From an uncultured Actinomycetota bacterium (GTDB taxonomy: Bacteria; Actinomycetota; Actinomycetes; Streptosporangiales; Streptosporangiaceae), in the NCBI GenBank assembly GCA_963705055.1, contig CAVPIR010000001.1, positions 1,164,890-1,228,889 of the forward strand: a DNA stretch of 64,000 bases, in the 5' to 3' direction. The notes below the pieces were generated by a model that was not told the DNA's origin, did not search any database, and worked only from the letters and a program-made list of their open reading frames with translations. Positions 57,440-62,472 of the stretch are shown piece after piece. The first letter of the stretch is position 1, and each line of letters starts with the position of its first letter. The translations under genes were made by a program, and so were the position numbers.

Positions 57440-57716
57440 CCCGACGCGAGCGTGAACGGCCGTATTGAGTTGGTGAGGGCTCTATCTACCGTGGGCATTC
57501 TGATCCGACTTGAACGACTCGGGAACTGCGCGATCTTCGTATGCCGCAATACTTGCCAATCCTTGGCCGTTGGAGGGTAATAGAACCAGTTTCATCGGCG
57601 GACGTCGCCCGATCAATGCCATTTCGCAGGCAGCGCCGGTGCATGGATGCTGAAGCGCCCAGAAAGGCCAGATGGCCCGACGCGGTCTGGCCCGCGTCAT
57701 TAGTCGGAGGTGCGTT

Positions 57717-60350
57717 GTGACGGTGTCACCCCTTGAAGGTGCGAGCCGCAGCTTGCCGAAGGTCACGCATGTCCCGCTAGTGGTTGAGTTCGATCCACTC
57801 GCACCGGGTAACGCGCTCGGCAAGTTCGGGTATTTGAGCCAGCTCAGCCTGCAGCCCGGCGACGTTGACGCCGTCCGGGGCCCCATGCGATATGAGCCGG
57901 GACATGGCGGGCCTGACTTGTCTGCCCTGCTCGGCAGATTCGAGGGGGCACCGATACCGAGCGCGCTTCCGGCACCGTCGGCATTCGTGCACTTCGAACG
58001 AGCGGAACTTCTTGGATTTGGTCGTCAGCTGCAGATCTACCGCGGTGACCAGCTTCAGTCCCTGATCGCTGACGGCAGTGACGCGAAAGCGATCGCCGAA
58101 GCACAGCTCCTGCTGCATGCTGCCGTGGTCGCGAACAACGGCTTCGACGCGAGCGGCGCGGTCAGCCCGGTTGGCATGCTCAATCTGGAGCGACTCGAGA
58201 TGACACCGGCTGGACTGCAGCGCGGCGAGCTCGTGGCGACCATTCCCCTCGCACCAGGTGAGACCACCACGGTGTTTCAGAAGGAATGGTCGGTGACCAG
58301 CCAGGAGTTCACGTCGATCGTCACCGATTCGCTCGAGGACTACAGCGAGACCGGCGTCACGGAAAACACTGAACTCGCCCAGTCGACGACGTCGCAGGTC
58401 ACGCATGCCAATCAGTTCAACGTCAACGCGACCGCGTCGGGCGGAGTCGGCTTCGTTTCCGGCTCCGCGAGCACCTCTTTCAGCTCGCAGGATCAGCATT
58501 CCCAGTCCGCGGTCGACAGCCGGAAGGATGCCATCACGACGACCAAGAAGGCGTCCAGCCGGGTCAAGCAAGAGCACAAAACATCGATCTCGATCAATAC
58601 CGTCACGGGATCTCAGGAGGCCAGCACCCGCACGATTGCCAACCCCAGCACGGTCCCGATACGGATCGACTACTTCAGCTTGATCAGGAAATGGCGGGTT
58701 CGGCTCTACCGGTACGGCCTGAGGCTGACCTACGACATCGTCATCCCAGAACCTGGCGCGGCGTTGCGCGAAGCCTACGAACAGCTTGACAGGCTGCGCG
58801 CCCAAGCCGGCGGCCAGTTCGCCTTCGACGTGCCGCACACCGACATCACCGCAGACACTCGTCCTGGCGAAAACCAGCCACACTACCTGGTTCTTGCCGA
58901 TCGCTTCGGCGCCGAAGTCCCACCGCCTCCGCAGCCGCAGAGCCCGATTATCGTTCGGCAGGACTTCCCCAATGGAGGGCCGATTAAGGTGCCGTTCAGT
59001 GTGCAGGACGGTTGGATCGACGGTGTCAAGCTCTCGTTCAATGGCGGCCTCACCGATCCTGGCGGCGGCACCGATCTGCACGCATTCATCTACTTCACCA
59101 ACTTCGACCGCACCGCTAACACCACGCTTGCAGTCAGCGACTTCAACCTGTTGGACACACAGGGCCGCCCGTACCTGGCGCATCAGAGCGGCGACCAGGC
59201 CATCGCCGTGGAATTCGACTGGCATACCGGTTCGGCGGCTGAAAGCCACGTACAACTGGAAATCGCTGTCGGCCCGACTGACGCGGCGATGACGGCCTGG
59301 CGCGAGCAGGTCTGGGACGCCCTCTACAACGCCGCACAAACAAATTTCTACGCCCAGCAGCAGCAGATCAGTGCCCAGATCGCAGCGCTCCAGGACGTCA
59401 TCGACGGCGTCGACACTCTGACGCTGCGGCGGGAGGAGAACGACGAGATCATGAAAGGGCTGCTGCGCTGGCTCCTCGGCGCGAGCTTCGACTTCATGCC
59501 CGCCGACGTCGTCAACACGGTCGATCAGTCCGCCGCCGCGGAAGAGAATCCGCCCTGGCCGCTGCGGCCGCTGACCAATCCCTTGTACTACGGCGAGGCT
59601 TTCGCCGATGCCAGCCTGCCGCTATCCAAGGGCGCCCTGTCAACGATGTACCAGTACGGCGAGATGGTGAAGTTCATCAACGAGGCCATCGAATGGGAGA
59701 ACCTGGTCTACTTCCTGTACTCCTACTTCTGGGATATCCCTGCCAGCTGGGATTTCATACGGCAGATCCAGCACCAAGACGCCACGCGCCAGGCGTTTCT
59801 TCGCGCCGGCAGCGCACGGGTCGTCGTCCCGGTCCGCAAGGGCTTTGAGCTCACCTGGACGAATTTCGTCGAGACCGGAGACCCCGCTACCAGCCCCGGC
59901 GACGGCAACCCCTACATCAGCATCGCCCAGGAGATCTACGACTACGACCAGACCAACTATCCCGGCATACCGCCAGCCAACCCCGCGGACGACAGCACGA
60001 CGGATCCGCCACCCACAGTTGCGACCGTATGCCACAGCAAAGTCGACCCGAGCCACAGCGAGCCTGTCACGCTCCAGGTCGAGTCGAGCGCAGGTTTTTT
60101 GGTCGGCTACGCGGTCGTCATCGACAGCTGGCACGGCACGCAGACCCAAGAGTCGCAACTTATTGTCGCGATCCCGAGCCTGACCGAGGTGACCGTCGCG
60201 GCTCTGAGTTATGCGCACGACGGCACCGCAACCGGCTTTCCGATCGTGCAGCCGGGTGAGCAAGGACTGCTGATCGCCGAGTGGAATGAGTACACGCCAT
60301 GCTCGGGCACCGACATCGCCATGACCAGTGATCTCGGCACCATCGTCTGA
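57717..60350 (+). CDS. Large orphan protein (~877 aa), no signal peptide or TM, no assignable family
   Basis: Uninterrupted ORF (track 57672..60350). GTG 57717 lies 6 nt after GGAGG. Lower GC than its surroundings. Landmarks: LERLEMTPAGLQRGELVATIPLAPGE, an S/T/Q-rich stretch (~58347-58649), PPPPQPQSP, AQQQQISAQIAALQD, EWENLVYFLYSYFWD and FLRAGSARVVVPVRKGFE. Confidence 0.8.
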   Translation: MTVSPLEGASRSLPKVTHVPLVVEFDPLAPGNALGKFGYLSQLSLQPGDVDAVRGPMRYEPGHGGPDLSALLGRFEGAPIPSALPAPSAFVHFERAELLGFGRQLQIYRGDQLQSLIADGSDAKAIAEAQLLLHAAVVANNGFDASGAVSPVGMLNLERLEMTPAGLQRGELVATIPLAPGETTTVFQKEWSVTSQEFTSIVTDSLEDYSETGVTENTELAQSTTSQVTHANQFNVNATASGGVGFVSGSASTSFSSQDQHSQSAVDSRKDAITTTKKASSRVKQEHKTSISINTVTGSQEASTRTIANPSTVPIRIDYFSLIRKWRVRLYRYGLRLTYDIVIPEPGAALREAYEQLDRLRAQAGGQFAFDVPHTDITADTRPGENQPHYLVLADRFGAEVPPPPQPQSPIIVRQDFPNGGPIKVPFSVQDGWIDGVKLSFNGGLTDPGGGTDLHAFIYFTNFDRTANTTLAVSDFNLLDTQGRPYLAHQSGDQAIAVEFDWHTGSAAESHVQLEIAVGPTDAAMTAWREQVWDALYNAAQTNFYAQQQQISAQIAALQDVIDGVDTLTLRREENDEIMKGLLRWLLGASFDFMPADVVNTVDQSAAAEENPPWPLRPLTNPLYYGEAFADASLPLSKGALSTMYQYGEMVKFINEAIEWENLVYFLYSYFWDIPASWDFIRQIQHQDATRQAFLRAGSARVVVPVRKGFELTWTNFVETGDPATSPGDGNPYISIAQEIYDYDQTNYPGIPPANPADDSTTDPPPTVATVCHSKVDPSHSEPVTLQVESSAGFLVGYAVVIDSWHGTQTQESQLIVAIPSLTEVTVAALSYAHDGTATGFPIVQPGEQGLLIAEWNEYTPCSGTDIAMTSDLGTIV

Positions 60351-60356
60351 GCGCAC

Positions 60357-61487: not shown

Positions 61488-61659
61488 AGGTCAGCCTCCG
61501 GCCGGTCATCCTTAGGCACAGACTTACGAACCTATCCCGCGCATCGCATCTGGTTCCCTAACATCGCACGCGTCTTCGGAGGAGAAGTCCTGGGCGCTTG
61601 CCGTTCGCAGCGCCGTTGGCCGATAACGCGCCGTCGGGGTGGCCCATGCCGGCTGGGTG

Positions 61660-62472
61660 TCATGCGGGTGTGAGGCGGAAGATCGGCCAGCCGATCTCGG
61701 TGCGCCACTGGCTGGGCGCGCCGGTATCTCGCGGTCCGGCCAGGTAGGTTTCGTGGACCGGGCCGTTGACGGCCAGGGCATGCCCTGCCACCCAGGCGCC
61801 GAGGCGGCCGTAGGTGACGTCGATGTCGTCGTGCGGGCCGGGGTGGACGGTGACGGCAAGCTCGGCGGCGGGCAGGTCGGTGACGGTGATCCGGCCGGAC
61901 TCGCGTGGCGCACGGACGGGCCGGAATACGGTCATGGCCCCGGCGCCCTCGGTGAACAACTCGTTGGCGTAGCGGCCGCCTGGCGGGCCGGTCCGATCGG
62001 CGGCCGGGAACGCCGCGTCGAGTTCTGCCATCGCGTCGTCGTACCAGGGGAGCACCTCGTCTCGGCGCACCTGGCCGCTGATGGCGGCGACGGTGCGCAC
62101 CGGGACTGACCGCAGCTCGACGTACAGGTCCGCTGCGCCGGGGCGCAGCAGCTGGCGCAGCGACATGACGGCGGCCTTCGTCCGGTCCAGTTCGCCCTCG
62201 AGACGTAGCAGGTGGCCGGTGATCAGCTCGGCCCGCCGCTGCGGGTCGCCGGTGGCCAGGATCGCCTTGACCTCGGCCAGCGGAACATCGAGATCGCGCA
62301 GCCGGCGGATCACCTGCGCCGGCGGGATCTGCTCGGCCGAGTAGTACCGGTAGCCAGTAACGGGGTCGACCGCCGCGGGCTCCAGCAGCCCGGCTTCGTG
62401 ATAGCGGCGCAGCGTCCGCACGCTCAGGTGGCTCAGCGTGGCGAACTCTCCGATCGTCAGGCCCGTACGCAC
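61660..62472 (-). CDS. MerR family transcriptional regulator with GyrI-like effector-binding domain
   Basis: GTG 62472. LTIGEFATLSHLSVRTLRYYHEAGLL-type HTH (here RTLRRYHEAGLLEPAAVDPVTGYRYY), a coiled-coil, then a GyrI-like C-terminal half. Confidence 0.85.
   Translation of the reverse strand: MRTGLTIGEFATLSHLSVRTLRRYHEAGLLEPAAVDPVTGYRYYSAEQIPPAQVIRRLRDLDVPLAEVKAILATGDPQRRAELITGHLLRLEGELDRTKAAVMSLRQLLRPGAADLYVELRSVPVRTVAAISGQVRRDEVLPWYDDAMAELDAAFPAADRTGPPGGRYANELFTEGAGAMTVFRPVRAPRESGRITVTDLPAAELAVTVHPGPHDDIDVTYGRLGAWVAGHALAVNGPVHETYLAGPRDTGAPSQWRTEIGWPIFRLTPA

Follow-up and report, generated by a model that had tools for sequence, protein, structure and literature searches.

In polymorphic toxins and in type VI secretion systems (T6SS), where VgrG/PAAR proteins are associated with Tle, Tae, Tge and Tlde1 effectors, a conserved component is genetically tied, or fused, to an effector that is exchanged rapidly. 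Aerolysin-type toxins and anthrax protective antigen form a beta-barrel stem on oligomerization, the expected signature of which is an amphipathic hairpin, and in binary toxins such as Vip1/Vip2 an enzymatic partner is encoded next door. The chitinases of Serratia are released by the holin/endopeptidase or “type 10” route, and the defence systems CBASS, Lamassu and Avs combine a large conserved protein with swappable phospholipase or transmembrane (TM) effectors. Here these systems are compared with a two-gene insert (genes 1 and 2, positions 57440-61647) in a stretch of 64,000 nucleotides from an uncultured Streptosporangiaceae bacterium (contig CAVPIR010000001.1, positions 1,164,890 to 1,228,889; the whole stretch is referred to as the window). 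Although it works like such pairs, the cassette lacks defining features of the polymorphic toxins, the binary toxins, the holin-endolysin pairs and the catalogued defence systems.

The likeness to polymorphic toxins lies in the mobile, patchily distributed cassettes and in an overlapping set of effectors, namely lipid phospholipases D (PLDs, as in Tle5), Tlde1-like proteins, glycoside hydrolases (GHs), pre-toxin TG and eCIS-core proteins. It differs from them in that gene 1 has no homology to a known trafficking or delivery domain, that neither a secretion apparatus nor a conserved immunity gene lies nearby and that most effectors are complete enzymes encoded separately, not C-terminal tips; in addition, the cassette also occurs in phyla lacking a T6SS. 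With the beta-pore and binary toxins (aerolysin/CPE, protective antigen, Vip1/Vip2), gene 1 appears to share elongated hairpins around a Ser/Thr (S/T)-rich loop with an amphipathic tip, disordered in the model of the monomer, and the cassette likewise includes a variable beta-sandwich and an enzyme encoded next door. However, the structural resemblance falls short of significance, gene 1 lacks a signal peptide and is about 3 times the size of aerolysin-like toxins, with extra helical and alpha/beta modules, and its partners would attack envelopes instead of targets in the cytosol. As in holin-endolysin pairs and the type 10 system of Serratia (ChiWXYZ), hydrolases devoid of signal peptides are encoded beside a gene that may provide membrane passage, and the partners resemble endolysin modules (lysozyme-like GH, M15, L,D-peptidase-like, lipases, PG_binding_1); unlike holins, gene 1 has no TM helices, is 10 times larger, has no phage or viral homologues and is found outside a phage context, with no spanin or antiholin genes. 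CBASS, Lamassu and Avs also show a mobile, sporadic spread and no immunity gene, but the cassette matches nothing in PADLOC, bears no signature of an NTPase, cyclase or SMC protein and features many domains of extracellular or adhesive type.

The insert and its sister-strain counterpart

A 488-kb metagenome contig (L097) carries a 99%-identical homologue of the FMN-dependent dehydrogenase gene of the window (55713-56939), the named protein relatives of which are from Streptosporangiaceae metagenome-assembled genomes (MAGs). In blastn, this contig matched the window at 95.2% nucleotide identity over 45731-57439 and at 96.4% over 61648-62612. Between these flanks are 4,208 bp with genes 1 and 2 in the window vs 8,535 bp with ten unrelated genes in L097. 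Because the flanks are collinear but carry other cargo between them, the limits of the insert are 57440-61647, and the horizontal acquisition that the initial annotation had proposed from base composition is directly shown by the sister strain. The elements of the insert are as follows.

57440..57716, plus strand: left insert edge and 277-bp region upstream of gene 1 (sister-strain homology ends at 57439)
57717..60350, plus strand: gene 1, 877 amino acids (aa), conserved component of the cassette (open reading frame (ORF), homologues, profile search)
60351..60356, no strand: 6-bp spacer between the convergent stop codons, gcgcac (sequence read-out)
60357..61487, minus strand: gene 2, 376-aa clan GH-A (beta/alpha)8 glycosidase-like protein (AlphaFold (AF2) model, Foldseek, invariant residues)
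61488..61647, minus strand: upstream region of gene 2 and right insert edge (sister-strain homology restarts at 61648)

The left junction lies exactly after the stop codon of the TfoX gene (57439) and the right junction about 12 bp past the end of the MerR-GyrI gene. Since L097 carries different cargo there, the site between these two genes is strain-variable, a hotspot in this uncultured Streptosporangiaceae-like lineage, and genes 1 and 2 arrived (or were retained) as one unit. The sharp junctions and the presence/absence polymorphism between close relatives are those of a genomic island; no meaningful direct repeat was found at the junctions or in the flanks, no tRNA within 45-64 kb and no recombinase or integrase among the window ORFs, in agreement with the first inspection of the sequence. 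The L097 cargo at the same site (965-9499 of that contig) encodes a polyketide cyclase, SDR, CMAS (a methyltransferase of cyclopropane-fatty-acid-synthase type), DUF1365, an amine oxidase, a B12-binding (LitR-like) MerR, YCII, an ECF sigma factor, HxlR and SnoaL, and resembles an operon for lipid modification under light or redox control.

The drop in guanine-cytosine (GC) content noted in the initial annotation was real but smaller than its hand counts, with 62.0% for the island vs 68.3% for the remaining window. The island is the lowest-GC 4.2-kb stretch of the window (0.17% of all stretches being equally low or lower), and values in 400-bp windows ranged between 0.59 and 0.65 within it and between 0.65 and 0.735 in the flanks. 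At third codon positions, GC reached 0.79 in gene 1 and 0.735 in gene 2 (the fifth lowest), compared with a median of 0.83 over 51 crudely called genes.

The start codon of gene 1 is a GTG, with GGAGG 7 nt before it; use of the in-frame ATG at 57672 instead would yield a protein of 892 aa, the 15 extra residues of which are absent from the homologues. Gene 2 has an ATG start, also with GGAGG 7 nt upstream. The ORFs, the motifs quoted from them, the 6-bp spacing of the stops and the absence of signal peptides and TM segments reported at first were all confirmed from the sequence. No signal peptide and no convincing TM helix was found in either protein: 19-residue Kyte-Doolittle means peaked at 1.62 in gene 1, within a segment that the model shows as a beta-strand, and at 1.31 in gene 2. 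A promoter and terminator scan was uninformative, with no sigma-70-like site found upstream of gene 1 (57440..57716), and a search for an upstream regulatory motif common to the four closest loci found none.

Linkage of gene 1 to a polymorphic partner slot

Linkage was surveyed on 80 genome contigs with gene 1 homologues, giving 79 scorable loci (species representatives only, with crude gene calls). A co-directional gene was found at most 300 bp downstream of the gene 1 homologue, often only 0-30 bp away, in 60 of the 79 loci, and these 60 downstream partners fell into more than 20 unrelated clusters. This coupling of a conserved component to highly variable modules is a hallmark of polymorphic toxins. 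The partners included PLDs (7/60), which were closest to cardiolipin-synthase-type enzymes (E 4.9e-12) and matched DISARM DrmC more weakly, PT-TG (pre-toxin) proteins (6/60; best E 2.3e-5, with a representative scored singly at 18.7 bits, under the Pfam cutoff of 23.5), gene-2-like GH-A proteins with no Pfam match (5/60), Tlde1/YkuD-like proteins (4/60) and Rv2525c-like (lysozyme-like) glycoside hydrolases (3/60), along with single eCIS_core (DUF4157; E 8.5e-21), beta-helix and Ig-like (He_PIG) proteins (1/60 each). NCBIfam further gave two beta-propeller matches and one BP39L-type lectin match, not resolved to the partner proteins carrying them. In searches of four unannotated partner families against the PDB with phmmer, no match was obtained, and putative GxSxG and Cys-His motifs picked out by eye in some partners were given no weight. 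Pfam detected no pre-toxin or trafficking domain in the window's own genes 1 and 2. Genes for patatin-like phospholipases and M15 peptidases adjoin remoter gene 1 relatives.

The link suspected between genes 1 and 2 was found wherever gene 2 was inspected. Homologues of gene 2 adjoin a gene 1 relative in 16/16 loci, including 3/3 look-ups that began from gene 2, and the linked loci span Actinomycetota, Bacillota, Nitrospirota, Bacteroidota and Pseudomonadota in both orientations. The tail-to-tail layout, to which the initial annotation had attached weight, is confined to the sub-clade of the window, comprising the window and its three closest relatives (gene 2 identity 64-69%), with gaps of 6, 161, 54 and 400 bp; most relatives are co-directional, gene 2 following gene 1 on the same strand in, e.g., B. 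thuringiensis, Nitrospira and Streptomyces/Kitasatospora.

Further features were noted at several loci. In Paraburkholderia flagellata (L092 12719-14551), insertion sequence/transposase genes lie between the gene 1 homologue and its gene-2-like partner, and a stand-alone T2SSG gene is located 3 kb upstream. In a Saprospirales MAG (L096 3248-5697), a very divergent gene-1-like gene 5' of the gene 2 homologue is split into 645 + 169 aa, representing either a frameshift or a pseudogene, and the public gene call is blank over this 2.8-kb stretch. In several Streptomyces loci (L009, L016, L023, L036, L069), the gene 1 homologue and its PT-TG partner are followed by a gene for a phosphocholine-specific phospholipase C with a Tat signal, which may be a third, secreted member of the locus or merely syntenic. 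The B. thuringiensis cassette (L084 12941-13447, 83-1945) is flanked by a TraG/FtsK-like coupling-protein gene on one side and an MNT/HEPN toxin-antitoxin pair on the other, hinting at a conjugative element or plasmid as its carrier.

The assignment of gene 2 as a GH-A/GH5-like protein lacking a secretion signal, made at first from short motifs, was borne out by structure prediction. The AF2 model is a barrel of eight beta/alpha units with a mean predicted local distance difference test score (pLDDT) of 94.7 and a predicted template modelling score (pTM) of 0.94. Foldseek returned 488 PDB matches at E≤1e-3, headed by GH5, GH1 and GH10-type barrels; the best were GH5 beta-mannanases (2c0h, E 2.5e-11, TM-scores 0.58/0.62), followed by GH5_18, GH5_4 and GH1 enzymes. 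Across 51 gene 2 homologues, no variation was seen at R69 (strand beta2), N193 and E194 (end of beta4), H262 and Y264 (beta6) or E294 (end of beta7), and hardly any at W333 (beta8). N193-E194-P195 follows the strand 189-193, and E294 is within the strand 291-295. Gene 2 therefore combines a TIM-barrel fold with the two glutamates expected in clan GH-A, the predicted acid/base E194 of the N-E-P motif on beta4 (codon 60906-60908) and the predicted nucleophile E294 on beta7 (codon 60606-60608). Seven residues of the GH5 signature (R, H, N, E, H, Y, E, W) are kept in the right strand order; the beta3 His was not identified.

Gene 2 thus shares the barrel, the N-E-P acid/base, the beta7 nucleophile and the Arg, His/Tyr and Trp residues with GH5 beta-mannanases and GH5_18 beta-mannosidases, but differs from them in an aa identity of 10-16%, TM-scores of about 0.5-0.6 and an obligate link to the gene 1 superfamily. 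No Pfam or NCBIfam model matched gene 2, nor did PADLOC or PHROG. A Pfam scan of all 51 homologues likewise gave no relevant match, to Cellulase PF00150 or to any GH model, and the family profile showed only weak matches in the PDB to GH10/GH5 around the NEP motif (E 0.003-0.06). Judging from the model and the conserved residues, gene 2 is predicted to be a catalytically active member of clan GH-A, its active site being intact, and its family appears to form a separate, unclassified branch of the clan, closest to GH5.

The gene 1 superfamily and its genomic surroundings

Gene 1 had been described as an orphan with motifs recurring in unannotated proteins of diverse bacteria. The second part of this description stood, and the first was replaced by a large superfamily. 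A word-indexed search returned 491 homologues, the best 120 of which were full-length at 44-76% identity and all named “hypothetical”. The hosts include Actinomycetota, Cyanobacteria (including a Tolypothrix plasmid), Bacillus thuringiensis, Paenibacillus, Paraburkholderia, Nitrospira and Acidobacteriota, among others. An exhaustive profile search gave 3,597 clusters (50% identity) at E≤1e-3, and 2,632 at E≤1e-10. The conserved core of the superfamily corresponds to profile positions of about 140-750, the N- and C-terminal regions being exchanged. Remoter relatives of about 790-1,270 aa, found on plasmids of Bacillus, Streptomyces, Chryseobacterium, Sinorhizobium and the archaeon Natronorubrum, have only the 146-350 module or the 641-750 module in common with gene 1. 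The modules of gene 1, all on the plus strand, are as follows.

58152..58754, plus strand: residues 146-346, most conserved module (AF2, conservation; kept in 26%-identical relatives)
58413..58484, plus strand: residues 233-256, amphipathic beta-hairpin QFNVNATASG-GVG-FVSGSASTSF, candidate membrane-insertion tip (alternating columns)
58932..59276, plus strand: residues 406-520, hypervariable beta-sandwich, candidate specificity or partner-matching domain (conservation, class identity)
59277..59516, plus strand: residues 521-600, conserved long, coiled-coil-like helices with DTLTLRREENDEIMKG (AF2)
59637..59996, plus strand: residues 641-760, conserved alpha/beta module AIEWEN...YFLYSYFWD...FLRAGSARVVVPVRKGFE (conservation, tblastn)
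59997..60350, plus strand: residues 761-877 and stop codon, subfamily-specific beta domain and conserved terminal hairpin LIAEWxEYTPxSGTDI (AF2, conservation)

In the AF2 model, an N-terminal helical region is followed by long strands, the beta-sandwich (408-519), helices (522-564 and 567-587, with an invariant D566-E574 block), the alpha/beta module and the C-terminal beta domain. Very long modelled strands (153-178, 183-190, 301-308 and 315-342) bracket an unstructured segment of residues 190-300, so that strands of 26 and 28 residues (153-178 and 315-342) flank an insert (195-304) in which Ser, Thr, Gln and Asn (S/T/Q/N) make up 48% of residues. This stretch had been taken for low complexity; it is instead highly conserved and holds the amphipathic hairpin. 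The majority-residue frequency was 0.77 in the insert vs 0.82 and 0.85 in the flanking strands, with no gaps, and only 0.33 in the middle beta-sandwich (406-520), which has many indels. The S/T/Q/N-rich stretch is therefore a constrained element, about as conserved as the core.

The consensus of the hairpin at residues 233-255 is Q-F-N-I-N-A-T-V-S-G-x-Y-G-F-V-T-A-S-V-A-T-G-F, and the alternation of hydrophobic and polar residues is strict in these columns over 50 sequences. The alternation and the S-G-x-Y-G turn are kept in relatives from Nitrospira, Bacillus, Sinorhizobium, Saprospirales and the archaeon Natronorubrum, down to about 26% identity. Such an amphipathic pattern in an S/T-rich loop, conserved across deep divergence, may be likened, by analogy, to the stem of aerolysin or protective antigen, and is also compatible with a buried hairpin.

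Outside the core, a GspG-like (T2SSG) globular domain is found near the C-terminus in 27 of 49 diverse gene 1 relatives and in many other subfamilies occupies the position of the C-terminal beta domain of gene 1. It was the only domain matched when a broad superfamily profile was compared with the PDB (E 1.9e-15). The context is unusual for T2SSG, and the domains in the relatives (e.g. Nitrospira L095 3354-5987, P0265-P0382) have neither a prepilin leader nor an N-terminal hydrophobic helix. Some members of the superfamily are fused at the N-terminus to a GH18 chitinase or PG_binding_1 domain, again with no signal peptide, and a PKD domain is also present in gene 1 relatives. The 641-760 module also gave stand-alone tblastn matches on plasmids of Streptomyces, Tsukamurella, Chryseobacterium, Sinorhizobium, Cupriavidus and Natronorubrum.

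The lack of a characterized family for gene 1, noted from the outset, held in every resource searched. No family of Pfam, NCBIfam, PADLOC or PHROG matched gene 1, with the superfamily core likewise unassigned, and the gene 1 profile retrieved nothing from PDB sequences at E≤1. The Foldseek candidates from the PDB and BFVD (beta-sandwich, capsid, tail and CPE/HA70 proteins) were rejected as weak local or low-probability matches. No description of the family was found in the literature on eCIS-core/DUF4157, Pepco, pseudopilin-like and pore-forming proteins, T2SSG and PT-TG. The superfamily is thus present in most bacterial phyla and at least one archaeon, yet its core has no assignment in Pfam, NCBIfam, PADLOC, PHROG or the PDB.

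A phage origin of the cassette was rejected, as no homologue was obtained by tblastn against 50,697 phage genomes or with two different profiles in the 2.9 million viral contigs of IMG/VR. A defence-island setting, for which the initial annotation had proposed a test, was not found either: PADLOC gave no match for gene 1 or gene 2, the partners matching only generic PLD (DrmC) models, and the eleven annotated neighbourhoods read showed no consistent defence island or secretion apparatus, the surroundings being housekeeping genes. HEPN/MNT, Fic or DndB genes occurred in three of these eleven neighbourhoods and transposases in two.

Left of the insert, the LigD Prim-Pol gene of the window (55020-55375) changes frame 1->2->3->1 relative to an intact 313-aa orthologue on L097, reflecting either a decaying pseudogene or assembly indel errors, so that errors of this kind are possible in the window; genes 1 and 2 are intact and full-length against their homologues. 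Between the LigD-like and dehydrogenase genes, a 108-aa highly basic ORF (55377-55703, minus strand) is kept in the sister strain as a counterpart of 107 aa with no Pfam match.

Candidate modes of action

On balance we tentatively favor, at rather less than even confidence, the reading that 57440-61647 represents a self-contained conflict cassette of two genes, acquired recently and encoding a binary polymorphic toxin that attacks envelopes, most likely those of competing microbes or fungi. Gene 1 would be the conserved half, a multidomain scaffold of about 880 aa, the long beta-hairpins and S/T-rich insert of which may refold on oligomerization into a membrane-inserting beta-barrel stem, by analogy with aerolysin-type toxins and anthrax protective antigen, while the hypervariable beta-sandwich and variable terminal domains could confer target or partner specificity. 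Gene 2 would be the exchangeable enzyme, here a GH5-like glycosidase with intact predicted catalytic residues; elsewhere the slot would be filled by a lipid PLD, pre-toxin-TG, Tlde1/YkuD-like or lysozyme-like protein, lectins, a patatin or M15 enzyme, or by a GH18/PG-binding fusion. Because neither protein has an export signal, we infer that release would be Sec-independent, via lysis or the scaffold's own pore. The two proteins would then cooperate physically, the scaffold breaching or binding the target envelope and the enzyme degrading its glycan, peptidoglycan or lipid layer. The glycan-directed conflict module of the initial annotation is retained here in part: a conflict role is plausible, but the module is not specifically glycan-directed because the GH5-like gene is but one of the many partners that replace each other in this slot. 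The intracellular target suggested at the same time is unlikely, as GH18, PG_binding_1, Tlde1/YkuD, lectin and GspG-like domains are of extracytoplasmic or envelope type.

Several observations weigh against the toxin reading. The AF2 model of gene 1 is of moderate confidence (pLDDT 69.5), and neither Foldseek nor the PDB profile search gave a significant structural or sequence link to a pore-forming or translocator family. The best Foldseek match in the PDB had an E value of 0.013 with a query-normalized TM-score of at most 0.1, and the only long-range alignments, though made to the aerolysin-like proteins CPE and HA70, had probabilities of 0.2-0.3 and a root-mean-square deviation above 40 A. 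The hydrophobic face of the hairpin consists of small residues (A/V/G) that could be buried in the fold. A relation that would speak for the scaffold model, the middle domain tracking partner class beyond any other region of gene 1 (identity 0.46 within vs 0.22 between classes, ratio 2.07, against 1.08-1.11 for the core), is suggestive but confounded by phylogeny. About half of the partners have no annotation, the two genes in the window are convergent and hence not co-transcribed, and no export route was identified for either protein. No conserved third or immunity gene follows the partners, the second downstream genes differing in family and strand, and in the window no gene lies between gene 2 and the insert edge; the lack of a cognate immunity gene is unusual for antibacterial toxins.

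The absence of signal peptides, even from the GH18 and PG_binding_1 fusions, and of a conserved immunity gene would be explained equally well by the main rival, an abortive-infection or self-lysis defence in which gene 1 acts as a cytoplasmic phage sensor and forms a gasdermin- or holin-like inner pore, freeing or activating a cytoplasmic envelope-degrading effector, such as a glycosidase, peptidoglycan enzyme, phospholipase or TM protein, so that the host dies. Such a role would also suit a cassette of two genes that stands alone in a strain-variable hotspot, sometimes close to transposase, HEPN/MNT, Fic or DndB genes, a sporadic spread over phyla that includes archaea and a partner repertoire akin to endolysin types; PLD, patatin and TM-protein effectors are, moreover, frequent in defence systems. 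Self-lysis is nevertheless considered less likely than the toxin, given that PADLOC recognized neither gene and the DrmC matches of the partners were weaker than those to cardiolipin-synthase PLDs, that the defence context was inconsistent over the neighbourhoods read and that homologues were absent from the phage and viral collections, where defence genes often travel. The lectin, Ig-like, PKD, GspG-like, beta-helix, PT-TG and DUF4157 domains also indicate extracellular, target-binding toxins, and we lean, cautiously, towards taking the lectin, Ig-like, PKD, GspG-like, PT-TG and DUF4157 domains as favoring action outside the producer, i.e. a toxin.

An alternative in which the cassette is not a weapon but a Sec-independent export or lysis helper for the producer's own wall or glycan enzymes, serving nutrition on fungal or plant polymers or wall remodelling and functionally akin to the type 10 route of the Serratia chitinases, draws on the GH18 chitinases, GH5-like enzyme, lysozyme-like GH and lectins among the partners and fusions, all devoid of signal peptides, and on hosts that are chiefly soil saprophytes. 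It is improbable in view of the PLD, PT-TG, Tlde1-like, eCIS-core/DUF4157, patatin and TM-helix partners, which are of toxin rather than nutritional type, of a patchy, strain-variable distribution better suited to conflict genes and of the neighbourhoods read, in which no linkage to sugar transporter or catabolic genes was seen. That the two genes are chance neighbours, gene 2 being a cytoplasmic housekeeping glycosidase (e.g. for GH5_18-like oligosaccharide trimming) and gene 1 a structural protein or phage remnant, would agree with convergent genes having separate promoters and with the cytoplasmic GH5_18 beta-mannosidases among the structural neighbours of gene 2. This reading is already contradicted by the adjacency in 16/16 loci over five phyla and both orientations, and the joint arrival of both genes in one 4.2-kb insert and the absence of phage and viral homologues make it highly improbable.

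The envelope-attacking toxin reading can be extended to the superfamily as a whole. In this broader proposal, to which we give a substantial though less than even chance, gene 1 and its relatives would constitute an unrecognized, self-sufficient envelope-breaching machine of bacteria and archaea, a new class of beta-barrel scaffold that, with no dedicated secretion system, escorts interchangeable enzymes degrading glycan, peptidoglycan or lipid into or through a membrane, the target membrane being that of a competitor or of the infected producer. If true, this would represent a new kind of toxin delivery or programmed lysis, and its discovery would rank in scope with those of the contractile injection systems or the bacterial gasdermins. 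The gene 2 family adds to this an unclassified branch of clan GH-A with an active site that is predicted to be intact. The near-obligate pairing of the scaffold with swappable envelope-degrading enzymes offers a testable handle on an unexplored conflict system and, should the scaffold form pores or deliver enzymes, would provide a new route of Sec-independent protein release or toxin delivery and a source of antimicrobial or antifungal enzyme pairs and programmable delivery scaffolds.

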